From positions 40,612,001-40,676,000 of the forward strand of contig CM059432.1 of assembly GCA_030390025.1 (NCBI GenBank): a stretch of DNA of 64,000 bases. The letters run 5' to 3'. A program made the position numbers and the translations under genes. The notes beneath the pieces are model-generated. The model saw only the letters and a list, made by a program, of their open reading frames with translations. It made no database searches and was not told the origin of the DNA. The stretch comes from Squalus acanthias (Eukaryota). Below, in pieces: positions 881 through 63,302 of this stretch. The first letter of the stretch is position 1. Every line of letters starts with the position of its first letter.

Positions 881-1264
881 TTTTTTCTTATTCATTCCTG
901 GGATGTGGGCATCCAGCATTTATTGCCCTTGAGAAGGTGGTGGTGAGTGGCTCGCTAGGCCATTTTGGAGGGCAATTAAGAGTCAATCACATTGCTGTGG
1001 GTCAGGAGTCACATATAAGCCAGACCAGGTAAGGATGGCAGAGTTCCTTCCCTAAAGGAAGTTAGTGAACCAGATGGGTTTATTACGACAATCGGTAGTT
1101 TTATGGTCACCATGACTGATACTAGCTTTGATTCCAGATTTATTTAATTAACTGAATTTAAATTCAACAGCTGCCATGGTGGGATTTGAACTCATATCTC
1201 TGGATCATTTGCCAGGCCTCTGGATTACTAGTCCAGTAACATAACCACTGTGCTACCATACCCC
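881..1264 (-). mobile_element. tRNA-derived SINE sharing head and tail with the 8653-11605 LINE
   Basis: Same A/B boxes, body and 3' tail. Confidence 0.85.
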
Positions 1265-1539: not shown

Positions 1540-3613
1540 ATTTCACTATAAATTCCAAGCATCAAATATAAGGAACTGATGGCAGAAAACAAAAGGAAGC
1601 CAATTAAAAAGCTACATTTCAAACAAGTCAATTTTAAAAGGCATGAGAGAATGCATGGGAATAGTAAAATGGGTTGCGATACTGGAAGGAAAAGATGGGG
1701 AAGGAAAGTGGCATAGTTTCAAAGGGATAGTTTTTAAAGATACAAAAAGAATGTATCCCTGGACTAGGTCAGGGGCAGAATAAAAGAGTGAGACTAGTTT
1801 GGCTTGCTAACAATGTTGTGAAAGGCATTAGGGAGAAAGAGAAACCATACAAAATGTTTTAATGTTCAGGAAAGTAACAGCAGAGGGAGATCTATAAAGG
1901 TAGGCTGGGGAATGCCAAGAAACTGATAAGGGCTGCAATCGTAGCTGGAAACATAATGCAGAACAGTAAAGAATTCTTCAAGTATGTCAGGAGTAAACAA
2001 AGGGTGCAAAGAGGGGTTGGTCTACTAAAAAGTGACAATAGGGAAGTGAAGTCCAAAAATAAACTGCTGAAGTATTTTTCAACAGTGTTCACAAAAGAAA
2101 TGGGGGGTTAATGCCAGAATTGGAGTACACTTTGAAGTTGAATGTAGACTATTTTTTTTAAATCACAAGAGAGAACAAATTAAGGAGATTGTTAAAGCTG
2201 AATGTAGTTAAGGCTCCTGGCTCTGACAACCTTCATTCAAGGTTCTGAAGGAATTGGCTCAAACAATTGAGAGCCCTCTTGCGGATATTTTTCTGTGTTT
2301 ACTGGACTTAAGACAAACCCCAGAGGATTGGAAAATGGCAAATGTGGCTCCCATCTTCCAAAAAAGGGGCGAGGGATGAACCATCAAATTATAAGCCTGT
2401 GAGCCTGATTTCCACTGTTTCAAAGTATTATGAGGATTAACTAATTTGAGGAGATAACAGGCCTAATTGACAGGGGAGAGACAGTGGATGTTATCCACCT
2501 GGATTTCAGGAAAGCATTTTACGCTGTCCCACATAATAGCCTACTACATAAGATCCAAGCCCATGGAATGGATGGGAATGTATTAAAATGGATAAGCAAA
2601 TGGTTGGTTGGTAGACAACAACAAGTAGTAGTGGCTGGGCAGGTATCTGGTTGGCAGCTAGTTACCAGTGGAATGTCACAAGGTTCGGCATCAGGGCCGT
2701 TTTGTTTATCATTTTTATAAATGATTTAGAGGAAGGAATTGTGTCCAAAATGTCCAAATTTGCAGACGGTAACAAATTGGGAGCAGTGGCAAATGATGGA
2801 TATCAATACACACAAATTCAAGAGGAATCTGACAAGCTCGCTCAGTGGCCCGAGAAATGGCAGATGCAATTTAATATAATGAAATGTAATGTTATGAGAT
2901 TTGGCAGAGGGAAGGTTGATATGGATTATGTACTAAATGGGAATGTACTTGAGGTATCGAAGCAGGAGAGAGCTCTTTGGGTTTTAGTGGAAAAAAAAGC
3001 AAACAGAATGTTGGGGTGCACAGCAAGGTGTAGAACATACAAATCAAGAGAGGTCATTTTAAAACTGGTTTTGGCCCTGGTGAGACCACATTTGGAGCAT
3101 TGCGTGCATTTTTGGTCTCCCTATTTTATAAAGGATATTCAGTTGCTAGTGGGCGTACAGAGAAGGGCTACACGGTTGATCCCAGAACTTAAGGGAATGA
3201 TTTATGAGGAAAGATCACTTAGCCTGGGTCTTTTCTCTCTTGAAAAAGACCGAGAGGACATATAATAGAAGTGTTTAAAATTATAAAAGGTTTGAACAAA
3301 TGGATCCAAGTAAATTTTTCTGCCATGTGCAGAATTTAACCACAAGGGGACATAGTTACAAATTAAGGATAACAAAAGAAAATAGGAAATGTAAAACGAC
3401 CTTTTTTTTTAAATCAAAAGGGTGGTAAGTATGTAGAACAGATTACCGGCACGGGTGGTAGAACAAGAAATTTTAATGGGTTTCAAGAAGTAATTAGACA
3501 GATTCTCATCATCAAATGGGATTCAGGGTTATTAAAAATCCACCAAGGGAATACTGTGGATAGGTGGATAGACCGAAGGTCTTCTCTTGCCTGAAACTGT
3601 TACTAAGTTACTA
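1540..3613 (+). mobile_element. Degraded CR1 LINE ORF2 and 3' end
   Basis: LDFRKAF, QGS, KFADG and LVRPHLE motifs with frameshifts. Confidence 0.85.
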
Positions 3614-5297: not shown

Positions 5298-7450
5298 GGC
5301 CCGGATTTTGCGGTCAGCGGCGAAGTGACGGCGCTCGCCGCTGACCTCGAAGAAAGCTGCCCACAAAGATCTAGCGAGCTCTGTGGTGTGGATTTCACCT
5401 TTCTCGATGTTAATTTCATTCTGGCATCACCTATAGGGGATCTCCGGCTTCCAGCAACAGTGATGTTATCAAGCAGGCTAAGCAGCCAATCACAATGTAG
5501 AATTCTCACAGACAGCAAACCAGGAAGTAAAAAGTACTGATTATGCTTCACTTTTTAATCATTTTACAGAGAGCGAAATAAAGATTGGGACAGGGATTAA
5601 GGTAAAAGCTGAAATATCATAAACAAACTTTAAAAATAAAAGTATTTTTTATTATTTTAAAAATCTAGGAATTTTATCAATAGAGAAATGACATTCCACA
5701 AATAAAAAAATCGTTTCAGTGGACGCATTGGTTGTCATCGTCCAAAATTCTATAGATTCTGGAATGGATTTGGGAAAATGCTGGAATCTATTATAAAGGA
5801 TGCAATAACTGGGCACTTAATGATAAGATTGGGCAGCGTCAACATGGATTTATGAAAGGGAAATCCTGTTTGACAAACCTATTGGAGTTGTTTGAGGATG
5901 TAACTAGTGGAGTAGACAATGGGGAACCGGTAGATGTGATGTACCTGGATTTTTAGAAGGCCTTTGATAAGATCCCACACAAGAGATTGCTGAACAAAAT
6001 GAGGGCACCTGGAATTGGGGGTAATATACTAGCATGGATTGAGAATTGGTTAACAGACAGAAAACAAAGAGTAGAGATAAACGGGTCTTTTTCAGGATGG
6101 CAGGCTGTGATTAGTGGGGTACCGCAAGGATCGGTGCTTGGGCCCCAGCTATTCACAATCTATATCAATGATTTGGATGAGGGACTAAATGTAACATCTC
6201 CAAATTTGCTGATGATACAAAGCTAGCTGGTAGTGTCAGTTGTGAAGAGGATGTGAAGAGGCTTCAAGGGGATCTCGACAGGCTCAGTGAGTGGGCGAGA
6301 ACATGGCAGATGGAATATAATGTGGATAAATGTGAAGTTATCCACTTTGGTAGAAAAAACAGAAAGGCAGAGTATTTCCTAAATGGTGAAAGATTGGGGA
6401 ATGCAGATGCTCAAAGGGACCTGTACATGAGTCACTGAAAGTGAATGTGCAGGTGCAGCAAGCCATTAGGAAGGCAAATGGTATGCTGGCCTTCATTACA
6501 AGAGGATGTGAGTACAGGAGTAAAGAAGTCTTACTACAATTATATAGGGCCTTGGTGAGACCACACCTGGGGTACTGTGTACAATTTTGGTCTCCTTACC
6601 TAAGGAAGGATATACTTGCCATAGAGGGAGTGCAACGAAGGTTCACGAGATTGATTCCTGGGATGGCGGGACTGTCGTATGAGAAGAGATTGAGTAAACT
6701 AGGCCTGTATTCTCTTGAATTCAGAAGAATGAGAGGGGATCTCATTGAAGCATACAAAATTATTACAGGGCTTGATAGGGTGAATGCTGGGAGAATGTTT
6801 CCCTTGGCTGGGGAGTCTAGAACCAGGGGCCAGCACCTCAGGATAAAGGGTAGGCCATTCAGGACTGAGATGAGAAGAAATTTCTTCACACAAAGGGTGG
6901 TGAATCTTTGGAATTCTCTACCCCAGAGGGCTGTGGAGGCTCAGTCATTGGGTATATTCAAAACAGAAGTCGATAGATTTCTGACTAGTAAGGGCATCAA
7001 GGGATATGGCGATAGGGCCGGTGAATGGAGTTGAGGCAGAAGATCAGCTATGATCTCATTGAATGGCGGAGCAGGCTCGAAGGGCCGAATGGCCTACTCC
7101 TGCTCCTATTTCTTATGTTCTTATGTGCCAGAGAGGTTGCTCAGCAGTAATTATGACTTAGTACGCTGTTAAAAAATCAGTTACTCTTCATTCAACAAGG
7201 CATAACTTTTTTTTTTTTTAAAGGGGTTTTACAGCATGAATAGTGTGTAAAAAGTTCACATCAATTCAGTGATTTTAATTGATTTCCATCTGTGAGGACT
7301 GCAACAGCGCACCCTGTGGAGGAGCAGGATATCACTGACAGCAACTTCAGGATTTCCATGTTTAAATACTCCAGATGTTGCTGTCAGTTTTACAGAGTAT
7401 TCTTTGTAATTCTATGTATTTATATGTAACAACCAGCAGAAAAGCACAAA
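5298..7450. mobile_element. Harbinger-type MITE interrupted by CR1
   Basis: Starts GGCCCGGATTTT, like the 54369 TIR; right end not clearly found. Confidence 0.4.
5722..7125 (+). mobile_element. HER1-like CR1 LINE 3' part, inserted in a MITE
   Basis: [22 protein letters not shown]; tail ...TTCTTATGTTCTTATGT. Confidence 0.92.
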
Positions 7451-8652
7451 CCCTCAATAAATTATACCGTAGGTAAGAATAAAATATCGGCTTCCACCAC
7501 AGTTTGCCGTGGGTTTTGACAGCGGCAGTCCTGTATTCCAGGGTGAAGGCTGGGTATTATTTCTCAGAAGAACCTATCAGCTGATGCCCCCATCCCCTCC
7601 CCCTCCACATTACACCCTTAGGGTAATGTTAGAGAGAGTGAGGGTTTACAGCATTGTGGAGCTTGCATGGAAAACGTTCGTAATTGTAATGATACTCGTG
7701 ACAGAAAATCACAAAGATCGAGTGGTAAAACTCGAATAGTGAAACTTTGAAAAGTTGAACAATGCAAAACTTTGTAAAATTTCTAACAGAACAAATAGTC
7801 TTTGGGAATGTGTTCACTGCAGTAACACAATTTCATGCTTTAAGCAACAATCATAACCCACTCAAGCTTTACGCTGCAATTTATCATATCTGAGGCCCTA
7901 CATTGTATTACTTACTTGTACCACTCTCTGAAGCATCCTTCTCTATGTAACAAGTTACAGTTTCAGCACTAGATGCTCTGTTGCAATGATTGACTAGAAG
8001 AGCACTGCAAGCTTGGCAGAGGATGTATTTTATAAGAATATCTGTGAAATGTACATGCTGTCAGCCACAGACAATTCCCAATGCTGGGTGAGAAACAGAA
8101 AGAATACAAAATAATTCCTTTAAATATGTAATTATAGTAATGGTAATCACCTTGTTTTATCTGCATTGTATTGATGAATAAACCTGGTGAGTTCAAGCTA
8201 TTATTGGTTTTAATTATCTGACTCTCTTACACTTTCACACATTCTGATAATGAAATACTGTACCCTCTATGGACAGGGTATTCACACATCAAATCACATA
8301 GCTAATTGACCTTTTTGCTCAACAAATTGAACAGATGACACGAGAGACAATCTAAGTGGTTTTGTGTTTGGTTCCTAACACAACTAAGACTATGGAACAG
8401 CACTCGTTCTTAACCTTTACACTGCCACGTGCAAGTTTACTCATCTGGGCATGCTACTGATTTGCAGGCCACTAATGACTTTAGTTGCCTGTCAGTAGCC
8501 TGTTACAGTTCCAATTCGTAAAAAATGGTTAGAGATTGATAGGTGGTTCAGTTTTGTTCAGGCTGTGAATAGATCAGCCACATATATCAGGAGGGTTGCT
8601 AGCTTCATTCCTAATCTGTACTGATTTAGCAGCTCTAAATTGGAGCAGCTAT

Positions 8653-11605
8653 ATTTTTTTGGTTCATGGGATGTGGGCCTCGCCAGCAAGGCCAGCATTT
8701 ATTGCCCATCCCTAGTTGCCCTTGAGAAGGTGGTGGTGAGCCACCTTCTTCAACCGCTGCAGTCCGTGTGGTGAAGGTACTCCCACAGTGTTGTTAGGGA
8801 GGGAGTTCCAGGATTTTGACCCAGCGGCGATGAAGGAACGGCGATATATTTCCAAGTCAGGATGGTGTGTGACTTGGAGGGGAACTTGGAGGTGATGGTG
8901 TTCCCATGCGCCTGCTGCCCTTGTCCTTCTCGATGGTAGAGGTCGCGGGTTTAGGAGGTGCTGCCGAAGAAGCCTTGGCGAGTTGCTGCAGTGCATCTTG
9001 TAGATGGTACACACTGCAGCCACGGTACACCGGTGGTGGAGGGAGTGAATGTTTAAGGCGGTGGATGGGGTGTCAATTAAGGGGGCTGCTTTGTCTTGGA
9101 TGGTGTTGAGCTTCTTGAGTGTTGTTGGAGCTGCACTCATCCAGGCAAGCGGAGAGTATTCCATCACACTCCTGACTTGTGCCTTGTAGATGTTGGAAAG
9201 GCTTTGAGGAGTCAGGAGGTAAGACACTCGCTGCAGAATACCCAGCCTCTGATCTGCTCTTGTTGCCACAATATTTATGTGGCTGGTCCAGTTAAGTTTC
9301 TGGTCAATGGTGACCCCCAGGATGTTGATGGTGGGGGATTCGGCGATGGTAATGCCATTGAATGTCAAGGGGCGGTGGTTAGACTCTCGCTTGTTGGAGA
9401 TAGTCATTGTCTGGCACTTCTGTTGCGTGAATGTTACCTGCCACTTATCAGCCCAAGCCTGAATGTCGTCCAGGTCTTTATTATCTGAGGAGTTGCGGAT
9501 GGCACTGAACACTGTGCAGTCATCAGCGAACATCACCACTTCTGACCTTATGATGGAGGGAAGGCCACTGATGAAGCAGCTGAAGATGGTTGGGCCTAGG
9601 ACACTGCCCTGAGGAACTCCTGCAGCGATTTCCTAGGGTTGTGATGATTGACCTCCAACCACCACAACCATCTACCTTTGTGCTCGGTATGACTTGAGCC
9701 AGTGGAGAGTTTTCCCCCCCGATTCCCATTGACTTCAGTTTTACTAGGGCTCCTTGATGCCTCCTCGGTCAAATGCTGTCTTGATGGCAAGGGCAGTCAC
9801 TCTCACCTCACCTCTGGACCAAGGCTGTAATGAGGGCGGGAGCCGAGTGGTTCTGGCAGAACCCAAACTGGGCATCAGCGAGCAGGTTATTGGTGAGTAA
9901 ATGCTGCTTGATGGCACTGTTGATGACACCTTCCATCTCTTTACTGAGGATTGAGAGTAGATTGAAGGGGCGGTAATTGGCTGGATTGGATTTGTCCTGC
10001 TTTTTGTGGACAGGACATACCTGGGCAGTTTTCCACATTGTCGGATATATGGCAGTGTTATAGCTGTACTGGAACAGCTTGGCTAGAGGCACGGCTAATT
10101 CTGGAGCACAAGTCTTCAGCATGACAGCTGGGATGTTGTCGAAGCCCACAGCCTTTGCTGTATCCAGTGCGCTCAGTCGTTTCTTGATATCACGTGGAGT
10201 GAATCGAATTGGCTGAAGACTGGCTTCTGCGGTGGGGGAGACCTCAGGAGGAGACCGATATGGATCATCCACTCGGTGCTTCTGGCTGAAGATGGTTGCA
10301 AATGCTTCAGCTTTGTCTTTTGCACTCATGTGCTGGGTTCCACCATCATTGAGGATGGGGATATTCATGGAGCCTCCTCCTCCCATTAGTTGTTTAATGG
10401 TCCAACCACCATTCACAACTGGATGTGGCAGGAGTGCAGAGCTTTGATCTGATCCATTGATTATGGGATCGCTTGCCTGGTGCTGCTCCTGGCATGCTCT
10501 TCTACACTCCTCATTGAACCAGGGTTGGTCCCCTGGCTTGGTGGTAATGGTAGAGTGAGGGATATGCCAGGCCATGAGGTTACAGATTGTGGTGGAATAC
10601 AATTCTGCTGGCCCACATGGATGTCCAGTTTTGACATCTGTTCTGAATCTATCCCATTTAGCACAGTGGTAGTGCCACACGACACGATGGAGGGTGTCCT
10701 CAGTGCGAAGACGAGATTTTGTCTCCGCAATGACTGCGGTGGTCACTGTCATGGACAGATGCATCTGCGACAGGTAGATTGGCGAGGACGAGGTCAAATA
10801 GGTTTTTCCCCTCGTGTTGGTTCTCTCACCACCTGTCGCAGGCCCAGACTGGCAGTTATGTCCTTCAGGACTCAGCCAGCTTCGGTGCTACCGAGCCACC
10901 CTTGGTGATGGATATTGAAGTCCTCCACCTAGAGTACATTCTGTGCCCTTGCTACTCAGTGCTCCTTCCAAGTGGTGTTCAACATGGAGGAGTACTGATT
11001 CATCAGCTGAGGGAGGGCGGTAGGTGGTAATCAGCAGGAGGTTTCCTTGCCCATGCTTGACCTGAAGCCATGAGACTTCATGGGGTCCAGAGTCAATGTT
11101 GAGGACTCCCGAATGTATACCACTGTGCCGCCACCGGTGGGACAGGACTTATCCAGGGATGGTGTATGATTCTGTGAGTATGACTATGTCGGGCTGTTGC
11201 TTGACTCGTCTGTGGGACAGCTCTCCCAATTTTGACACAAGTCCCCAGATGTTGGTGAGGAGGACTTTGCAGGTGCTGAGGTCATCCGGTTTTATTCTTA
11301 TTCGTAGCAGTTTTTTACAACTGAGTGGCTTGCTAGGCATTTCAGGGGGCAGTTAAGAGTCAAACATATTGCTGTGACTCGAGTCAAATATAGGTCAGAC
11401 AACAGATTTCCTTCCATAAAGAACATTAGTGAACCAGACGGGTTTTTATGACAATCTGATAGTTTCATGGTCACCATTACTGATACTAGCTTTTTATTCC
11501 AGGTTTTATTTATGCCGCGGTGGGATTTGAACTCTTGTCTCCGGATCATTAGGCCAGGCCTCTGGATTACTAGTCCAGTAACATAACCACTATACTACTG
11601 TTCCC
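8653..11605 (-). mobile_element. Near full-length decayed CR1/L2-group LINE with tRNA-like 5' head, APE endonuclease and RT, no ORF1
   Basis: A box, anticodon arm and B box at 11522-11597; endonuclease N-terminus KVLLTNIWGL..QQPDIVILTES at ~11170-11268; RT motifs ([18 protein letters not shown]); ORF stop at 8712; A-rich tail; interrupts a Deu-SINE. Confidence 0.85.
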
Positions 11606-14600
11606 ATAGAGTACAATTGGTCTCAGCTCTCCTGAGATACAAAAGGCAAAAATCATCTGACGTTCTCACTCTTGATTGCCACCCAGTCATCCTTGCTAAA
11701 TTCCTGTGCATAGACTTTTGGTGAGAACAGGATTGTGATGCCTCCTCAGATCAAATATCCTGTCAACATTCACTTTTTGGGTTCACACCTGGAGAATGGC
11801 TATTTGGGAAAGGTACCCAAGGCACTCAGTGCTTGAGAAACTATACCCCAGCCAGGGGTGAATGCCTTCAGGAGAGGAGGGAAGAAGAAAAGAAATTTAG
11901 CTGGTCACATCTCTGTGTCACAGGGCAGTCTCCTTAAGATGGCTGTCACTTCGAAAGCCCTCGGCAAAAATGTACATGAGGGGGGATCAGCTGACCTTTT
12001 GTTTGCGATCCCACTGCCTGCCCCCAGAGATTGTACATTGCCAGGTTAGTCTCCTCCCCAAATTTAAAATTAAACAGGAGGCTTGGAGAGTGTTCTTGGC
12101 ATCAAGTTCATCATACCAAAATCAATGGGCTGCCCCAGAATCAGAGACAGAGCTCCTGTCGAAAAATAGAAGTCAGGAGAGCATAACTCCTCCCCCTCCA
12201 CCACCACCCCCCTCCACTTTCCACAATTCCATCTCCCACTCTGAGCTTTAACAACAGGTTTTCCTATGCTAAAATAGTGGAGGCACATGGCTGGAGAATA
12301 TAAAAAGAGTCCAGTGCACAGAGTACGAGTCTTTTTGCTCGGCCAGTTGTCAGCTGAGTTATAATCCCATGAATTCAGGACTACCCATTTGATGCAGATT
12401 ATCATACAAGGTATAGAGATGCATCAGGGAAGGCTGCAGACTACAGCAGATTTTCACCAGGATGGCCAATTCAGCAGAACAAGGTTGCAGTTGGCTTGCT
12501 CCTTTGCACTGGTCATGCCCTAGTACTGCTGTTCAGATAGAGACCAGTGCTTTGGCATAAAAGGTTGTGTACTAGGTCGTATTGTGCTGTGCAGGTTGTG
12601 TAGTGGTCAGGAGAATGTGATGTCAGATGATGAGGGAAGTTCCTCCATGGCACAGAACCAATAAAGAGCCCAAATGTTTCTACAACTATTTCCACAGCTT
12701 CGGTTTATGATTGCTTAAAGCTCCTGTGAAGCACCTTGGGATGTTTTACTATATTAAAGGCTCTATGTAAATGCAAGTTGTTCATTGACTAAACAATCGG
12801 CCTTTGGAGCCAATTTTTATCCAATCAAAAAACATGTTTTAGCAAGTTTTCCCAATACCAAAGTAGATAGTGAAAGCCAGGAGGAAGAGAAAAGGGAATC
12901 TTTTTTTTTCTTCATTTTTTAGAAAAATAAGCTATAGAAATGATACATTAGATGGAAAAATAAAGTAAATGTAGACCAGAGAGTGTGGGAAGAAAGAAAG
13001 ACTAGGGCAGGAATGACATTGAGCAAAACTAAAATGTTATTTTTTCAATTAAAATTGTATTTCTTGGAGTTTAATTTTGAAGTCCAGGGTTAACATTATC
13101 GTAATTAAGCGACTGCTGATATCCAAATCACTTTATTAGTGCTCACTTCAGGTCACAGTGCAGGAGCTAAAAACTCACAAAGCTAGCCAGTGAGACAGTC
13201 ATTTCCTGTCAGCGGTCAGAGAGTTAATTACAGAATATCGATTACCTTACTTTTCATCATTTGAGAGTCAAAGGACCAGAACCAGAAACTGGAGAAGAAT
13301 AAAAATGTGAGTAATGTTAAACTATAATCATTCCTCATCACAAGACAAACATCTAACTTTTGTTTTTGCAAAGGATTTTTTTTTTTTTTTAAGACCCTGG
13401 TAATGGTTGCTGTGCTCAGAGAGTAACCAGACAATGACCACCTGTGAGCCTGTCAGGACAGCATTAAGGAGCTCTGCAATGATCTTGCTTTAGTCAATCG
13501 CTGTGAAATGTCTCCTGTGGGTCTTTTCTGTTACATGTTTGCTCTTTTGTTAAAAGGGATAATTATAGATGGCAGCACTGTGAGAAAGAGTGATTAAAAT
13601 GGCCGACTGAAGATTCTTTGCTGTGAGATACACTCCCTGCCTTCGCCTCAGCTTCGTATGTTGCTCCAGATAACAACAAAATGCAAGTTCATTGCCACAT
13701 CTTCAATTGACCAAGATAGCTGAATAGATCAGAATTGTGCAACCAGATCTCCATTTGGTACATTCCAAAGTATTTTATGTTTTTCCAAACTGAAACTTGT
13801 GGACTAAAAGGTCACAGGTTCGATCCCCAGTCTGTGCTGAACTAACTCAGCCAGGGGAGTCATTGGTGCACTATAACTCAGGGCCCATGTACTAGGAAGG
13901 CAAAAACAGTGGCTTTGAGGTGACTTCTGTTGGAAAGAGAGAACGTCGAGCTGATGTACAAGTCCAGCCATGATCATATTGAATGGCGGAGCAGGCTCGA
14001 TCGGCCGTATGGCCTACTCCTGCTCCTATTTCTTATGTTCTCATGAAAGTGTGATTGTGTAGGTGATGGGCGAGTACAGCATTCGGCCCTAGGTGTGATG
14101 CCTTACATGATTGAATAGTTTGTGTTTCACTCACTGTCTAGGTTCACATAAAGGTGCCGAGTGAGAGCACAAATGTTCCCCCAATATTAATATTGAGTGT
14201 GGAATCTGAATAACTGACCTTTGCCTCATTCACAGCTGACTCCTCCTGGCAGCGCCCTCTGTGGGGCTTGCAGGAGTCAATTTGTGCTTATATCCTTAAG
14301 CCTCTGGGACTAACTGAATTTGCCAGGCTTGAGTTTGGAAATATCTGTGCTCAATGGTGAATTTAGGATTTACCCACCAATGGGAGGAGGGCTGAGAACA
14401 GATGTTTCAAACCGCTAGGCCCGTCAAATTCTGTATTAATTATTCATGTGTGAACCCGGATAGTGAGCACTAACAGGTTATTTGAACATTTGGCCTTCTA
14501 TTTGCAGAAAACAATCCCTCTGGGCCATCTGGAAACTTTAAAAATGGAAAGTGGTTGATTTTCAAAATTGAGGCTGAAGGGCAGCCCCAATAACTGAACG

Positions 14601-23479: not shown

Positions 23480-23782
23480 AGACCCACAACATCTACCATC
23501 TAGAAGGACAAAGGCAGCAGGTGCATGGGAACACCACCACCTCCAAGTTCCCCTCCAAGTCACATCATCCGGATTTGGAAATATATCGCCGTTCCTTCAT
23601 CGTCGCCGAGTCAAAATCCTGGAAATCCCTCCCTAACGGCACATTGGGAGTACCTCCACCGCATGGACTGCAGCAGTTCAAGAAGGCGGCTCACCACCAC
23701 CTTCTTGAGGGCAATTAGGGATGGGCAATAAATGCTGGCCTTGCCAGCGACGCCCACATCCCAGGAATTAATATATAAAAAA
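23480..23782 (+). mobile_element. 3' fragment of the same LINE family
   Basis: HHHLLEGN ORF end plus shared tail. Confidence 0.85.
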
Positions 23783-23989: not shown

Positions 23990-24321
23990 TTCTTTCTATT
24001 CGCTCATGGGATGTGGGCGTTCATGGCAAGGCCAGCATTTACTGGCCATCCCTAATTGCCCTTGAGAAGGTGGTGGTGAGCCGCCTTCTTGAACCGCTGC
24101 AGTCCATGTGGTGAAGGTACTCCCACAGTGCTGTTAGAGAGGGAGTTCCAGGATTTTGACCCAGCGACGATAAAGGAACGGAGATATATTTCCAAGTCAG
24201 GATGGTGTGCGACTTGCAGGTGGTGGTGTTCCCAAGCGCCTGCTGCCCTTGTCCTTCTAGATGGAAGAGGTCGCGGGTTTGGGAGGTGCTGCCGAAGAAG
24301 CCTTGGCGAGTTGCTGCAGTG
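23990..24321 (-). mobile_element. 3' fragment of the same LINE family, inside a degraded Deu-SINE
   Basis: ORF 24052-24372 matches the LINE C-terminus. Confidence 0.85.
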
Positions 24322-24576: not shown

Positions 24577-27122
24577 ATATCCCTTTCAATTCTAATCCCA
24601 TGGCGGGCTGAATTTCAATTGATTCCATTGGGACTTTAAAGCATTTTCAACGTAATCGTGTGTTTCAAAGATAAGTGCAGACGGCAAAATGTAACCATGT
24701 TTGTTTATTCCGCTATTTCTCTGCACGATGTCACTAAACAACACAGTAGTTCCCTCTTAGGGCAATATTTGCTTAGCGGAGCGTGTGAAAATGCTAATAT
24801 TTAGTTGGTGATTAAAAACCAACAGGATGATTTAATCTGAAGTGTGTCTGTTCGCTTGCAGTATGTTTGTGAATTCAGCCGAGTGTTTGGAAATCTGTTG
24901 TGGATAGAGATGAAATAACAGCGGCAGAGTCAACAGAGAGGGGAAAGTGCATTCCTACATAACAGTAATGTAAAAAAAATCTATTTCAAGACCAGTCTTA
25001 CGAAACATTGATGAAGGCCAATCTGATAGGATTTTTTTTTGGAAAAATCGGAAATCGACAGCAGTTCTTTAAATTAGTGCAAAGTAAATCTGTTTATTTT
25101 TATTGTCAAAAGTCAACACAGACTCTCCATGCACATGTCCTGGGTGTTCAGTGTAAAAACACCACGCTTTCATTAGCACAGTCCCTGCTGTCCAGCCTCC
25201 CCAATAAAACTCGGATTAAGAAAGGCTCACATTCTGCTTTAATTAAGTGGAGATCTGTCTCTTTCTTCCTGGCCAGTTGACAATCTAAAGGTTATTGTTC
25301 CACAAATATACACAAGGGAATTGAATCAGTTCGCGTGTAATTATAAAATGATTTCATTAATTTCCCAAAGACACGCTGGGTCATCCTCGCACGATTTCTC
25401 ACCGGGTTCCGTCCCAACCCTGAACACACCCCATCACAGTGAATGGTGTTTTTGTTTTAAAAGCAAATAGGTTGACAGCAGCTCTTTATTCTTTTGCGCT
25501 ATTAAATACCAGCGTCGATCTAAACCAACAAGATCCTACTCCTGGCTATTGCAGCTCATTCTCCCGTAAAGTATAATAGACAGAGCGCAAACGGACAACT
25601 TGAGCCCGCATGTATCGCTGGGATCCTTGAACAGCGAAACACACCCACCGAGCCCCCTCCATTACAGCTTGAGTGTGTATACTGCAATTTCAAACAGATT
25701 GAAAATAAAATTGAACAACAAATACGTAAATACTGGAGCTGATGAGGTAACAGAGAGGGTTGATGAGGGCAATGTGGTGTACATGGACTTCCAAAAGGCG
25801 TTGGATAAAGTGCCACATAATAGGCTTGCCAGCAAAGTTAAAGCCCATGGAATAAAAGGGACAGTGGCAGCACAGATACGAAATTGGCTAAGTGACAGGA
25901 AACAGAGAGTAGTGGTGAATGGTTGTTCATCGGACTGCAGGAAGCTACACAGTGGTGTTCCCCAGGGGTCGGTACTAGGACCACTGCTTTTCTTGATATA
26001 TATTAATGACTTAGACTTGGGTGTACAGGGCATAATTTCAAAATTTGCAAATGACACAAAACTTGGAAGTATAGTGAACAGTGAGGAGGATAGTGATAGA
26101 CTTCAAGAAGACATAGACAGGCTGGTGGAATGGGCGGACACGTGGGAGATTAAATTTAATGCAGAAAAGTGCGAAGTGATACATTTTGGTAGGAAGAAAG
26201 AGGAGAGGTAATCTAAACTAAAGGGTACAATTCTAAAGCAGGTGCATGAACAAAGAGACCTGGGGGTATATGTGCACAAATCATTGAAGGTGGCAGGGCA
26301 GGTTAAGAAAGCGGTTAAAAAAGCATATGGGATCCTGGGCTTCATAAATAGAGGTCATGATGCGGAGATGCCGGTGTTGGACTGGGGTGGACAAAATTGA
26401 GAGGTCGCACATCACCAGGTTATAGTCCAACAGTTTTATTTGAAATCACAAGCTTTCGGAGCTATCGCTCCTTCCTCAGGTGAAGTAAATTGGATACAGA
26501 ATCGCCAGAGCATATATAGATGGAAAAAAAAGCATGTGTACTTTACAATTGCAGACCAATAAATTAAATCATCCTGACTATCTGCCGAGGTGTGATAAAG
26601 TTAATTAAGTCAGCCAGGAAGGTACCACATCAAAAGACATAGCAAGATACAACTGAGACAATGAGGTGAAGTCGCAGGGGTTCTAACGTGTCAAAAGCTG
26701 CCGTCTGTATGTAAAACGAAAAGCTTTAAAAAAAATTTACTTTTTTACTGGGAAAATTTTTACTTTTTTACTGGGAATCACATCTGTGAACAAGCTAACG
26801 ACGACTCGAGTCCGGATCACGTCATGTATCGTGACATAAACCCAAGATCCCGATTGAGACCGTCTTCATGAGTGCGGAACTTGGCTATCAGTTTCTGCTC
26901 GATGATTTTGCATTGTCGTGTGTTTCTAAGGTTGCCTTGGAGAACGCTTACCCGCAGATCCGAGGCTGAATGTCCTTGACTGCTGAAGTGTTCCCCGACT
27001 GGGAGGTAACAATCCTGCCTGGCGATTGTTGTGTCGTGTGTTTCTAAGGTTGCCTTGGAGAACGCTTACCCGCAGATCCGAGGCTGAATGTCCTTGACTG
27101 CTGAAGTGTTCCCCGACTGGCG

Positions 27123-27524
27123 ACATGCCAGATCATCAACACAGATACCACCATCACACGTGAGGACACTACCCACCAGGTACATGGTACATACTCATGT
27201 GACTCGGCCAACGTTGTCTACCTCATACGTTGCAGGAAAGAATGCACCGCGGCATGGTACATCGGCGAGACCATGCAGACACTGAGACAACGTATGAACG
27301 AGCACCGCGCAACAATCGCCAGGCAGGATTGTTACCTCCCAGTCGGGGAACACTTCAGCAGTCAAGGACATTCAGCCTCGGATCTGCGGGTAAGCGTTCT
27401 CCAAGGCAACCTTAGAAACACACGACAACGCAAAATCATCGAGCAGAAACTGATAGCCAAGTTCCGCACTCATGAAGACGGTCTCAATCGGGATCTTGGG
27501 TTTATGTCACGATACATGACGTGA
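27123..27524 (+). pseudogene. Uninterrupted GIY-YIG endonuclease domain of the PLE ORF (5' truncated, RT absent)
   Basis: Translates TCQII...YSCDSANVVYLIRCRKECTAAWYIGETMQTLRQRMNEH...EQKLIAKF...GLNRD. Confidence 0.9.
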
Positions 27525-28719: not shown

Positions 28720-29590
28720 TGTGGGGATGTTCGCTGATGACTGCACAGTGTTCAGCACCATTCACAACTCCTTAGATAATGAAGCAGTCCATGCCCGCAT
28801 GCAACAAGACCTGGACGACGTTCAGTGCCAGGCAATGACTATCTCCAACAAGCGAGAGTCTAACCACCTCCCCTTGACATTCAATGGTATTACCATCGCT
28901 GAATCCCCCACCATCAATATCCTGGGGGTCACCATTGACCAGAAACTTAACTGGACCAGCCAAATAAATACTGTTACAACAAGAGCAGGTCAGAGGCTGG
29001 GTATTCTGCGGCGAGTGTCTCACCTCCTGACTCCCCAAAGCCTTTCCACCATCTACAAGGCACAAGTAAGGAGTGTGATGGAATACTCTCCACTTGCCAG
29101 GATGAGTGCAGCTCCAACAATACTCAAGAAGCTCGGCACCATCCAGGACAAAGCAGCCCGCTTGATTGGCATTCCATCTACCACCTTAAACATTCACTGT
29201 CTCCACCACCGGCGTACCGTGGCTGCAGTGTGTACCATCTACAAAATGCACAGCAGCAACTCGCCAAGGCTTCCTTCGGCAGCATCTCCCAAACCTGCGA
29301 CCTCTTCCACCTAGAAGGACAAGGGCAGCAGGCGTATGGGAACACCACCTCCTCCAAGTTCCCCTCCATTCACACACCATCCTGACTTAGAAGTATATCG
29401 CCGATCCTTCATCGTCGCTGGGTCAAAATCCTGGAACTCCCTCCCTAACAGCACTGTGGGAGTACCTTTACCACACGGACTGCAGCAGTTCAAGAAGGCA
29501 GCTCACCACCACCTTCTCGAGGGCAATTAGTGATGGGCAATAAATGCTGGCCTTGCCAGCGATGCCCACATCCCATAAATGAATTAAAAA
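28720..29590 (+). mobile_element. 5'-truncated copy of the tRNA-headed LINE family
   Basis: RT C-terminus nearly identical to ORF 8712-9539; same tail. Confidence 0.9.
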
Positions 29591-31556: not shown

Positions 31557-32919
31557 ACACTAAGGTATGATTCCGCTGGTGCCAAGCATCAACCAGTACT
31601 TCACTCAAAGTGACCATTCTTTATGTGAACCTTGATACTGACTGTCAGCAGGCTATTTGACACTGGAGGCAATGTATATATCTGAAGTCCACATATGCAA
31701 AAATTACAGGATAGTAATTAGGAGTGAGACTCCGAATTATTCTCCCCCACCCCTCTTCCTAGCTCAGTAATGCGGAGACCATTTGTAGCTCCCTCCATGG
31801 CTGCACAGACCAGGAAATGAAACTGGAACCTGCTGGTCTGTATGGTTCACTACCACAATGGCCAATGCCATTAACCACCAATCTCTAGAATAGACTCTAA
31901 TCAAAGAATCAGACTGTACATCTTGAGTTGATGCAATGTGGTTTTTGTATCACACTGAGACAAAAAGAGCAGTGAAACTGCAGCTTAGGTTTAATGAAGA
32001 GTGAGATTCGGATTTTTAGTAGTAGTACCATACCACCTGGAGGAGATGGTGTCTCACTGCTTCCTTCTTCACCCCAGTTGCAGTATAATTGCTACTCAAT
32101 GCATAGGTAAATTTTGAGGCTTTTCGGATGGGCTTTTGATCCACTTTAAATTTATTGTTAAAAAAAAGAGCAAATGGGATAGTCAGATCTTTTTTAACTT
32201 TAAAAAATGGTCACTACAGTTGCAGACTGATGAGCAGAGCTCTCCTTTGCCTGTTTAGAATGTGTGGCTCTCTGGTATCCACCACACTCTGGTATCCCTG
32301 GAAAATTGCCAGAATTCTCGATCCGCTATTATCTAAACATGTTACATTCTGTGCTCTGCCTCTTGCCTAACTCCAGGTGCAACTGACTATCTTCTAAATG
32401 GAGATTTGAATCCATTGAGCTGACAATGCCTTCACGACTAAATCACAAAATGTTTGTGGCTATTTAACACATTATTTCCTGCTCAGATCCTTCAGCCATC
32501 TAGGTCCCACTTTCTGGAATTCGCTCCCTCAATTTTTCCATCTCCCTTTTCTCCTTTGATCCCCTCCGTAAAACCCACCTGTTTGAGCAAGCTTGTGGCC
32601 ACCCCGCCCAATATCTTAAATAAAAACAAAAAATGCTGGAAATACTCAGCAGGTCAGGCAGCATCTGCGGAGAGAGAAACACCCAATATCTTCTTTGGCT
32701 GAAGGTCCATTTTTCTCGGGCCTCTGGCGAGGTGCCTAGGGACATTTGCTCATTAAATGTAAATTACCCTTGTTGGACTGGAATTGAGTTTTGCCAATAG
32801 TGAGGGAGGAATCGTTCTGTTCGCACGGTGATAAATGTCACATGTCTCTGGAGAGCGACACAATCTTCACGAAGATATCGGCCAATAGGTAAAGTAGGAG
32901 GATGCCGAGGGCCGCTTAC

Positions 32920-33925
32920 CTTTCTCACTGTTGACTTTGACCGTTATCTGGATGGCCGATTTGCCGCGAAGTCTCTTCGATAAATAAACTTTGCCGGAGT
33001 CCCTCTCTATCTGCACGGGGGCATCCGCCGGGGCGATCACTTCAAACCACCGTCCTTCAAACTCCCAGTCGGGGATTGTGTAAATGACATTTCCCACCTT
33101 GTCCTCCTCGGACACAGTCACCGAGTGAAACATCTGGTCCGGCACTGACCGAGCTGCTCTCCTGCCTTCAGGAAGTCCCAGAGCCCTGGGTTTTACGTTG
33201 ACCAGGACTGTCAGAGGGTCAGTGACCTGGGCGACCAGACCTTTATCCCGGCCATAAACTGACAGGTGGAGGGGCTCCATCCCCATCAGAGAGCCCACCA
33301 CCAGGATTTGGCCAGTCCGTGGAACCACGAACAGCTGAGGGACCTCCGGGAAGGGGCGATAGCTGATTTCAGCATTCCTCCCTTCATCGTGATCCGTGGC
33401 GGTCACTCGGGCGATCTCGGATCCCACAGCAATCATTTCGTCCACGTCCACCCTCGTCGCTTGCTCCGAACCGAACAGCGGTCTGTTGTCGTTCACATCG
33501 CGGACCCGAACTTTAACCAAAGCAGCGGTGCAGTTGGACCTGTCGGGGCAGCTGGGCGCCGAGAAGCAGCGGAGCGTCAGGACGTAGAGCGATCTCCCCT
33601 CCCGGTCCAAAGGTGCTGCGGTTCTCAGCAGGACGTTGCCCTCGCCGTGGTGATGGTAGAGCTGGAAAACCGAGCCTCCTCCGTCCCCGCCGAGCTCAAC
33701 CTGGAGCCTGGCCCCGGCAGGGTGCAGCGGGCAGACCCTGCGGCCAGGGAGGCTGACGCCGCTGACTTTGGTGCCAGGTGAAGAGCTTTCAGAGACGTGG
33801 CCGTAAAACACCGGTGTGGCGGCAGAGGAGCCGGAGTCCCGGAGAGCCAGAGAGAGCAGCCACAGAGAGTGAAAGAGGAACGAAGGGCCCCCGAGACAGT
33901 GGCGGCTCTCAGGGAGGAGCTGCAT
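32920..33925 (-). CDS. First coding exon of a large cadherin, probably DN-cadherin/type III ('neural-cadherin-like'): signal peptide, two cadherin repeats, RAAR site, further atypical repeat
   Basis: ATG at 33925; hydrophobic leader; LDRE, DVNDNRPLF and ATDHDEG calcium-binding motifs; G|GTAAG donor at 32920/32919 (phase 1). Confidence 0.85.
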
Positions 33926-33959
33926 GACCGGCACCCCAGAGGTTGCAAACTAAAGATGC

Positions 33960-55875: not shown

Positions 55876-56329
55876 GGGGTACGGTAGCATAGTGGTTATG
55901 TTACTGGACTAGTAATCCTGGACTATTGATCCGGGGACACAAGTTCAAATCCCACCACAGCAGCTGTGGAATTTAAATTCAGTTAATTAAATAAATCTGG
56001 AATAAAAAAAGCTAGCATTAGTCATGGTGACCATGAAACAACCGGATTGTTGTAAAAACCCATCTGGTTCACTAATGTCCTTAGGGAAGGAAATCTGCCG
56101 TCTTTACCCGGTCTGGCCTATATGTGACTCCAGACCCACAGCAATGTGGTTGACTCTTACCTGCCCTCTGAAATGGCCTAACAAGCCACTCAGTTGTACC
56201 AAACCACTACACGGACTGCAGCGGTTCAAGGCGGCGGCTCACCACCACCTTCTGAAGGGCAATTAGGGATGGGCAATAAATGCTGGCCTTGCCAGCGACA
56301 TCCACATCCCATGAACGAATAAAAAAAAA
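55876..56329 (+). mobile_element. tRNA-derived SINE sharing head and tail with the 8653-11605 LINE
   Basis: TAGCATAGTGG A box, GTTCAAATCCC B box; tail encodes HGLQRFKAAAHHHLLKGN as in the LINE ORF end. Confidence 0.9.
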
Positions 56330-62283: not shown

Positions 62284-62598
62284 AGGAAGTGCAGTGGTTA
62301 CATTACTGGACGAGTAATCCAGAGGCCTAGAATAATAATCCAGCAAATGTTAGTTCAAATTCCATCACGGCAGTTGGAAAATTTGAATTCAGTTCTTTAA
62401 AAATCTGGAAATAAAAGAGCTGGTATCAGCAAAAGTGACCATGAAGCTGTTGGAGTCTCGTAAAAACCCAACAGCATTGTGGGACCATCTTCACCATTCG
62501 GAATACAGTGATTCAAGAAGGCCCACCACCACTTTGTCAAGATAACTAGGGATGGGCATTAAATGTGGCAGCGATGCCCACGTCCCATGAACAAATTA
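62284..62598 (+). mobile_element. Older copy of the same SINE superfamily
   Basis: Diverged head, shorter body, longer LINE-derived tail. Confidence 0.75.
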
Positions 62599-62599
62599 A

Positions 62600-63302
62600 G
62601 GGAACGGTAGCATAGTGGTAATGTTACTGGACTAGTAATCCAGAGGCCTGGACTAATAATCCAGAGACAAGAGTTCAAATCCCACCACGGCAGCTGGGGA
62701 ATTTAAATTCAGTTAATTAAATAAATTTGGAATAAAAGGCTAGTACCAGTAATAGTGACCATGAAACTACCGGATTGTCATTAAAAACCCATCTGGTTCA
62801 CTAATGGCAACACGGTGGCATAGTGGTTAGCACTGTTGCCTCACAGCGCCAGGGACCCGGGTTCGAATCCGGCCTCGGGTGACTGTCTGTGTGGAGTTTG
62901 CACATTCTCCCAGTGTCTGCGTGGGTTTCCTCCAGGTGCTCCGGTTTCCTCCCACAGTCCAAAGATGTGCGGGTTAGGTTGATTTGGCTATGATAAATTG
63001 ACCCTTAGTGTTAGGGGGATTAAATACGTGGGGTTACGGGGAATGGGTGGGATATGTGTCGGTGCAGGCTCGATGGGCCAAAATGGCCTCTATCTGCACT
63101 GTGGGGATTCTGTGATTCTGTGACTAATGTCCTTTAGGGCAGGAAATCTGGCGTCCTTACCCGGTCTGCCCTACAGCAATGTGGTTGACTCTTAACTGCC
63201 CCCTGAAATGGCTTAGTAAGCCATTCAAGGGCAAATAGGGATGGGCAATAAATGCTGGTCTTGCCAGCGACGCCCACATCCCGTGAACGAATAAAATAAA
63301 AA
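62600..63302 (+). mobile_element. Same SINE family, interrupted by an HE1-like SINE
   Basis: Head at 62600; body resumes at 63123; tail to ~63300. Confidence 0.85.
62807..63122 (+). mobile_element. HE1-like V-SINE
   Basis: tRNA head GGTGGCATAGTGG...GGTTCGAATCC; V-domain-like GTCTGCGTGGGTTTCCTCC..GGTTTCCTCCCACA; CR1-type tail; TSD ACTAATG at 62800-62806 and 63123-63129. Confidence 0.8.

Follow-up and report, generated by a model that had tools for sequence, protein, structure and literature searches.

Long interspersed elements (LINEs) are taken to be transcripts of RNA polymerase II (Pol II) and short interspersed elements (SINEs) transcripts of Pol III (PMC5786205), a division that counts against the reading we arrive at here. 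The closest described relatives of our element are the Zenon LINEs of sharks, rays, coelacanth and hagfish, reported as ORF1-less and poly(A)-tailed (Stuart et al. 2026, PMC13343379). The elasmobranch Zenon-1 entries of that catalogue (SquAca, CarCar, RhiTyp, ScyCan and HypSab) have no ORF1, an endonuclease–reverse transcriptase (RT) frame, an A tail and a length of about 3.3 kb, all as in the element described below; in the main text of the catalogue tRNA and polymerase III are not mentioned, and SINE occurs once, in a reference. In Lepidoptera, a Zenon LINE of about 3.3 kb is accompanied by Persaeus, a short derivative of its 5′ and 3′ ends which is said to have neither tRNA homology nor a Pol III promoter (PMC6740152), and in bivalves Zenon is the partner of Deu SINEs (PMC11481361). 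The SacSINE1 / Deu tRNA SINEs of sharks, chimaera and coelacanth (PMC5499810) unite a tRNA-related head, a body and a LINE-type tail in at most about 460 bp; SacSINE1 is non-coding, its tail is tied to L2-2_CM, and the cited parts of that paper report no LINE bearing the head. Bov-tA and SINE2-1_ACar (PMC4494074, PMC5786205) carry a tRNA head on LINE-derived 5′ and 3′ parts, hence on a non-autonomous, deleted LINE. A further precedent is given by R2, L1Tc and RTE with HDV-like ribozymes (PMC6765202), which lack ORF1. Their RNA frees itself by self-cleavage out of co-transcripts of Pol I or Pol II, and its translation without a cap is proposed to depend on a structured 5′ end. A coding LINE that is tRNA-headed or driven by Pol III was not found in the open-access PMC and bioRxiv literature.

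The window, a stretch of 64,000 nt from the genome of Squalus acanthias, contains at 8654–11605 on the minus strand a decayed, near full-length copy of an abundant elasmobranch CR1-Zenon LINE of about 3.3 kb, which differs from the family majority by 5.6% substitutions. This copy, its parts and its relatives in the window are the following:

8654–11605, minus strand: copy of the tRNA-headed CR1-Zenon LINE, with 15 deletions of 7–91 nt, stops and frameshifts
11517–11605, minus strand: tRNA-like head, whose first base is the 5′ end of the family
11587–11597, minus strand: A box (family positions 9–19) of a putative type-2 Pol III promoter, kept in copies
11523–11532, minus strand: B box (family positions 74–83) of the putative type-2 Pol III promoter, the same 12-mer in 20 of 24 copies
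11316–11516, minus strand: non-coding body, common to the short SINE copies of the genome
8712–11315, minus strand: broken single long frame with an Arg-rich lead, AP endonuclease (from about 11271) and reverse transcriptase
8662–8711, minus strand: 3′ UTR with AATAAA at 8698–8703, common to the SINE copies
8654–8660, minus strand: A7 tail, read from the sequence
28721–29579, plus strand: sister copy, 5′-truncated, 88% identical, free of runs of four T (T4)
24004–24321, minus strand: 3′ fragment of the CR1-Zenon family
23482–23767, plus strand: 3′ fragment of the CR1-Zenon family
55877–56316, plus strand: short SINE form, head and body of the LINE running directly into its 3′ tail, non-coding
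923–1262, minus strand: SINE-form copy, its head called tRNA-Thr(AGT) by ARAGORN at 1172–1262
62284–63288, plus strand: cluster of SINE-form heads and tails

The A and B boxes were assigned with the general box consensus, and we take the body at 11316–11516 and the short SINE copies to be Deu-type. The match of the head to the Rfam tRNA model is weak and far below threshold (17 bits, E 1.3, 11542–11604). In the family majority the body contains several ATGs, which open short or out-of-frame frames, and two AATAAA. Elsewhere in the window we observed a GC-rich island (60% GC) holding an open frame of 360 codons for two cadherin domains (32867–33949, minus strand), likely an exon of the host gene, and a GIY-YIG frame fragment (27105–27524, plus strand), which is presumably Penelope-like.

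The family itself is already catalogued. By eye, the first 400 nt of SquAca_Zenon-1 are almost letter-identical to our family majority, which makes them the same family; the Zenon assignment rests on this near-identity and not on the RT tree. Within these first 400 nt the consensus rows of the five elasmobranchs (3,244–3,314 characters) all open with the same head and show no TTTT by eye; the head is missing from the rows of hagfish and coelacanth, which do contain T4 runs. Head, boxes and terminator deficit go unremarked in the main text of PMC13343379. Our tree of 149 RT sequences, with no named Zenon among them, placed the family apart from the CR1 of the same genome and beside A-tailed relatives with weak support (0.52–0.82). 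The neighbours are proteins from metagenomes, about 935 residues long, whose identity to the element is 44% at most across near full length. A canonical vertebrate CR1 has a long 5′ region with ORF1 and no poly(A), and the Zenon family departs from this build: just 434 nt lie ahead of the endonuclease, the longest ATG frame there has 76 codons, no ORF1 is present, and A-rich tails were seen on nearly all of the 101 family 3′ ends listed. The CR1 control from the same genome reaches 4 kb upstream of its ORF2, which the Zenon family does not.

Copies were collected from the 3.7-Gb genome with a DNA search using the 5′ kilobase (best 40 of 14,397 candidates scored) and with an RT-peptide search (best 150 of 227,358 candidates scored), figures that are not copy numbers. 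The copy set comprises the window copy and the 34 contiguous ones of 39 others, the fragmentary L049, L050, L059, L062 and L066 being left out. The column majority of these 35 copies, from which they differ by 2.4–10.5%, is 3,292 nt long and has one open frame of 970 codons (stop to stop). Pfam Exo_endo_phos and RVT_1 were above cut-off in the natural copies L063 and L071. The tRNA-like head belongs to the element itself. Among 41 pieces running from the head into the frame 20 begin at base 1, and the upstream flanks of 24 pieces starting within 8 nt of the 5′ end have nothing in common. The first copy set was found using the head and is therefore biased towards it; among 20 copies chosen by RT similarity alone (the longest open frames of the 150), 6 carry the head from base 1–4 and the rest begin further in. 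Variants shared between copies are 47 synonymous to 34 non-synonymous, compared to 736 to 1,822 for rare ones, which indicates that the source elements coded and that their frame was under purifying selection.

A candidate older, independent subfamily, sought through two diverged fragments, was dropped, since the 10 of 81 hits that were fetched all belong to the same family, with long pieces 88–98% identical. One further subfamily search returned old scattered pieces of another LINE only. Three side observations concern sequences met in these searches. A stretch of the shark protein P0118, whose annotation reads aldo-keto reductase, is 71% identical to the family frame, probably because the gene model runs into a copy. 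Intact animal-type LINE frames lie in many bacterial and archaeal genome bins (L220–L299), likely as host contamination. Finally, L075 contains at 2754–2946 a long near-perfect inverted repeat that scores 46 bits, below threshold, with a plant miRNA model and is probably the remnant of a small DNA transposon.

Because the minus strand is the sense strand of the copy at 8654–11605, the absence of AAAA on the plus strand is an absence of sense TTTT. The preliminary description had counted by eye no such run over 8661–11605, about nine AAA and about fifteen opposite T runs; these counts are exact, with 0 AAAA, 9 AAA and 15 runs of T4 or longer in the 2,945 nt of the plus strand. The AAAA-free span (8526–11640, 3,115 nt) is the longest in the window, the runner-up measuring 1,032 nt. 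Base shuffles of the same copy yield 4.6 T4 (P = 0.0095). The sister copy (28721–29590 for this count) does lack TTTT, as had been noted, and still carries little weight as support, given that only 1.3 are expected (P = 0.27) and that a sequence 88% identical to the LINE copy is no independent witness. The CR1 at 5722–7125, said to have several sense TTTT, has 3 (4.3 expected).

The shortage of T4 is an inherited family trait. The 35 copies (106,202 nt) contain 15 sense runs of T4 or longer and 470 of A4 or longer, and 23 of them have no T4 at all; in a second set of 20 copies, selected for the similarity of their RT (49,240 nt), the corresponding numbers are 1 and 210, which gives 16 T4 against 680 A4 in all 55 copies. 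Taken alone, however, the TTTT count fails as a proof of selection by Pol III. The column majority of 3,292 nt is free of T4, as the proposal of such selection anticipates, compared to 3.9 expected after base shuffling (P = 0.02), 1.4 after dinucleotide shuffling (P = 0.23) and 1.9 when the 935 codons that start with the endonuclease are shuffled synonymously (P = 0.11). The claimed depletion is hence not significant against codon or dinucleotide shuffles (P 0.11–0.24), as T makes up 19.6% of the majority and few TTTT are to be expected; for this statistic, that is the outcome which the preliminary description had named as its own refutation. Phe codon usage was likewise not telling, with 3 TTT among 18 codons, the other 15 being TTC (P = 0.14), and 6 TTT to 18 TTC in an RTE-like LINE of the same genome, which we name so from a motif. 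The contrast with other LINEs held for the CR1 of the genome, which is rich in T4 (166 in 45,850 nt, 20 of 150 hits), and not for the RTE-like family, where 22 T4 in 42,928 nt (20 of 40 hits, 5′ end missing) leave just 1 in a majority of 2,569 nt.

These numbers are what one would see if the lack of T runs came from a T-poor, C-rich coding strand and chance, the element being made by Pol II from its own or a host promoter and the head being either a SINE passenger or a signal for a cleavage that frees the 5′ end. With 19.6% T and a low frequency of TT, only 1.4–3.9 TTTT are expected, and T4 is as scarce in the majority of the RTE-like LINE (1) and in L221 (1), L166 (0) and L273 (0). Precise 5′ ends suit any internal promoter or cleavage, and other ORF1-less LINEs are indeed freed from co-transcripts by ribozymes (PMC6765202). 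Unlike R2, L1Tc and RTE, the shark family gave neither a ribozyme match nor a fold signal: Rfam found no ribozyme in the full-length copy L075, and shuffled sequences fold as well as the first 432 nt of the family do (z −0.56). The 5′ ends of L110, L220 and L200 gave no ribozyme in Rfam either, although those of the two relatives L110 (1–1075) and L220 (1–1213) contain stretches which we take to resemble the 5′ UTRs of ribozyme-bearing RTE elements. A capped Pol II message would moreover be ill served by the nine ATGs ahead of the frame and the two AATAAA, all within the first 360 nt. The compositional account is further weakened by the wider class of Pol III stops considered below, and we regard it as unlikely.

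Human Pol III in vitro stops not only at strong terminators but also at T3VT2, T2VT3, T3VT, TVT3 and T2VT2, while isolated T3 and T2GT2 cause hardly any stop (Orioli et al., PMC3141230). The majority contains 7 TTT against 19.8 after base shuffling (P = 0.0004), 5 against 11.3 after codon shuffling (P = 0.004), and a single five-nucleotide window with four T against 10.1 expected. All seven TTT in its 3,292 nt are isolated, hence of the inactive kind, and are joined by one weak TTCTT. For the active motifs, strong and weak together, this amounts to 1 observed against 11.0 (base shuffle, P = 0.0003) and 5.8 (dinucleotide shuffle, P = 0.0135), and within the frame to 1 against 5.3 (synonymous shuffle, P = 0.0105). 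The inactive classes are not depleted (7 observed, 11.0 and 6.3 expected), and the A, C and G analogues of the active motifs occur about as often as expected (35/35.2, 47/40.9 and 20/21.2). The same holds for the controls, with observed to expected numbers of 6/5.1 for the RTE-like LINE, 25/17.9 for CR1 and 8/10.5 for L221, an A-tailed relative with 20.1% T and a missing 5′ end that serves as composition-matched control; compared directly, the family differs from the RTE-like LINE with P = 0.005 and from L221 with P = 0.017. In 141 outside LINE frames (those of 160 loci that are free of N and at least 380 codons long) the ratio falls no lower than 0.58 and has a median of 1.12, compared to 0.09 for the Zenon family, although few of the controls match its 19.6% T and most have 22–37%.

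The natural copies follow the majority. Their active-motif ratio is 0.23 (35 copies), against 1.18 and 1.50 in the controls (20 copies each). The window copy has 5 active motifs where 12.7 are expected (P = 0.006). Taken singly, L071, a natural copy with an intact frame, is not significant (4 against 8.1, P = 0.07), and L074 is. Judged from sequence, the terminator deficit shows up for T alone and in the Zenon family alone and survives three nulls, with terminator classes that are those of human Pol III in vitro applied to a shark element, and in a test that was not blind, the T3 and four-of-five deficits being known before the classes were consulted. It is evidence from one lineage, as the family copies and the elements of other sharks share ancestry. 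The earlier proposal of selection for Pol III read-through on a coding frame thus stands in its direction and loses its TTTT statistic, the combined deficit of strong and weak terminators taking its place. This deficit, which persists under dinucleotide and codon shuffles, spares the inactive TTT and is absent for A, C and G and in composition-matched controls, speaks against composition and chance.

U tracts could also be selected against for other reasons: in a Pol II transcript they might act as splice acceptors or as downstream elements of poly(A) sites, or they might make the RT slip. Each of these causes would yield a deficit specific to T and to one strand, the inactive motifs are somewhat low in the natural copies too (0.65, compared to 0.80 and 0.95 in the controls), and Phe is rare (1.9% against a median of 3.3% in 97 homologues). 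However, CR1, the RTE-like LINE and the 141 outside frames face the same hazards without a deficit, and all 7 TTT of the family are isolated, compared to 24 of 60 in the pooled controls (P = 0.003). We therefore hold such causes to be very improbable.

The variants and tails of the copies were examined as well. Changes that create T4 are fewer than expected (16 against 27.6), which we rejected as a signal of selection, as changes creating C4 show the same deficit (45 against 82). Avoidance of T3 and T4 does not differ between shared and rare variants at the given sample size (1 of 33 and 83 of 946, P = 0.35). A T4 lies within 22 nt of the tail in 20 of 101 tails, against a background of 13%, and the length of T correlates negatively with that of A (rho −0.44). 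A built-in terminator in the tail was also set aside as less likely than decay of the A tail, since T trades against A length and TnAn is common across loci. The A tails of the family have often become palindromes of a T run and an A run of nearly constant length, as in L053, L057, L077 and L084. TnAn outnumbers AnTn by 300 to 78 in 921 kb, which hints at a mutation process by template switching.

Among outside sequences, a metagenome scan for headed relatives was empty, the head profile was unmatched in 161 outside loci, and ARAGORN found no tRNA in 60 of 80 metagenome loci. Many of the outside contigs lack 5′ ends, so that a missing head there is no proof of its absence. Contigs from four runs cover 30 of 30 bins of one copy; they carry neither start, strand nor cap.

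How the frame would be translated is the weakest part of the picture. In general, RNAs made by Pol III are short, carry no cap and are translated poorly, which counts against our reading. None of the nine ATGs in the first 360 nt of the majority opens the long frame, and the first in-frame ATG of that frame lies at 1179, past the endonuclease. The frame begins with an Arg-rich lead of 35 residues as found at the N-termini of several homologues, a likeness suggesting that the lead is translated. From the last upstream ATG, at 358, runs a 48-codon frame (358–501) in another phase, which overlaps the start of the endonuclease. This ATG is lost in 9 of 38 copies, the window copy included, and these share linked variants (12 synonymous and 7 non-synonymous in the frame). 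Its context is present in the published rows of five species, as far as their first part shows. Frameshifting from the 48-codon frame was considered and rejected, because no plain slippery site was seen by eye and the subfamily does without its ATG. With no in-frame AUG before the endonuclease and a dispensable ATG 358, we infer a non-AUG start. For R2 an uncapped RNA is thought to be translated via its 5′ structure, according to a review (PMC6765202).

Alternatively, Pol III might make only the RNA that is copied, while a second transcript, capped and made by Pol II at this locus or a different one, encodes the protein, and the element would then be a very long SINE-like template. This would explain the loss of terminators without translation of an uncapped RNA, and a non-coding SINE form driven by the same head does exist. 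On the other hand, purifying selection on the frame (47:34 against 736:1,822) is simplest to understand if the protein copies its own RNA, and even a capped message would still be without an in-frame AUG. We judge this option improbable, even more so than the compositional one.

The short copies in the window fit the build of SacSINE1 and the Deu-domain SINEs; they are named here by build, and were compared by description. They share with SacSINE1 the succession of tRNA-related head, body and LINE-type tail, and they alone are SINE2 elements in the sense of being short and non-coding, which the 3.3-kb coding element is not. Contigs of four runs contain joints of body and tail that skip 2,810–2,863 nt. 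As a side observation, the SINE-form heads probably give rise to spurious tRNA predictions when shark genomes are annotated. The pairing of a 3.3-kb LINE with a short derivative of its two ends is that of Zenon and Persaeus in Lepidoptera, but the 5′ end shared in the shark is a tRNA-type head. Likewise, the head that Bov-tA and SINE2-1_ACar carry on a deleted LINE sits in the shark on a full coding element. Either the LINE took its head from a SINE or the SINE is a deleted LINE. Since the coelacanth has related SINEs and no head visible on its Zenon row in the part compared, the evidence leans to capture in the shark lineage.

Taken together, we propose that the family is a Pol III-transcribed coding LINE, a reading that sequence evidence from one lineage supports with a probability of roughly 0.6. 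Transcription by Pol III from end to end would explain the loss of oligo-T stops from the sense strand. With slightly less assurance, at a little better than even odds, we suggest in full that a 3.3-kb Pol III RNA is translated without cap and AUG, that its codons dodge strong and weak terminators, that this arrangement was kept across sharks and rays, and that the Deu-type SINE is its deleted form. In such a cycle, TFIIIC would bind the A and B boxes of the head, and Pol III would start at base 1, read 3.3 kb into the A tail and stop at a flanking T run. Once a source copy gained a terminator, its RNA would end early, lack the 3′ recognition tail and yield no new copies, so that such motifs would be purged. 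Translation of the uncapped RNA, for which R2 offers a proposed parallel, would begin at a codon other than AUG downstream of the 330-nt body, and is the weakest step. The protein may then copy its own RNA by target-primed reverse transcription, and the short SINE with the same head and tail would use the same enzyme.

Should the proposal be wrong, there remains a shark Zenon LINE that is in the catalogue already and whose SINE head had been overlooked. If it is right, a LINE that uses Pol III would break the textbook split into coding LINEs made by Pol II and non-coding SINEs made by Pol III. A Pol III RNA of 3.3 kb could then act as a message, a direct route would lead from LINE to SINE by deletion, and the conserved SINE body would gain a candidate role in the start of translation.
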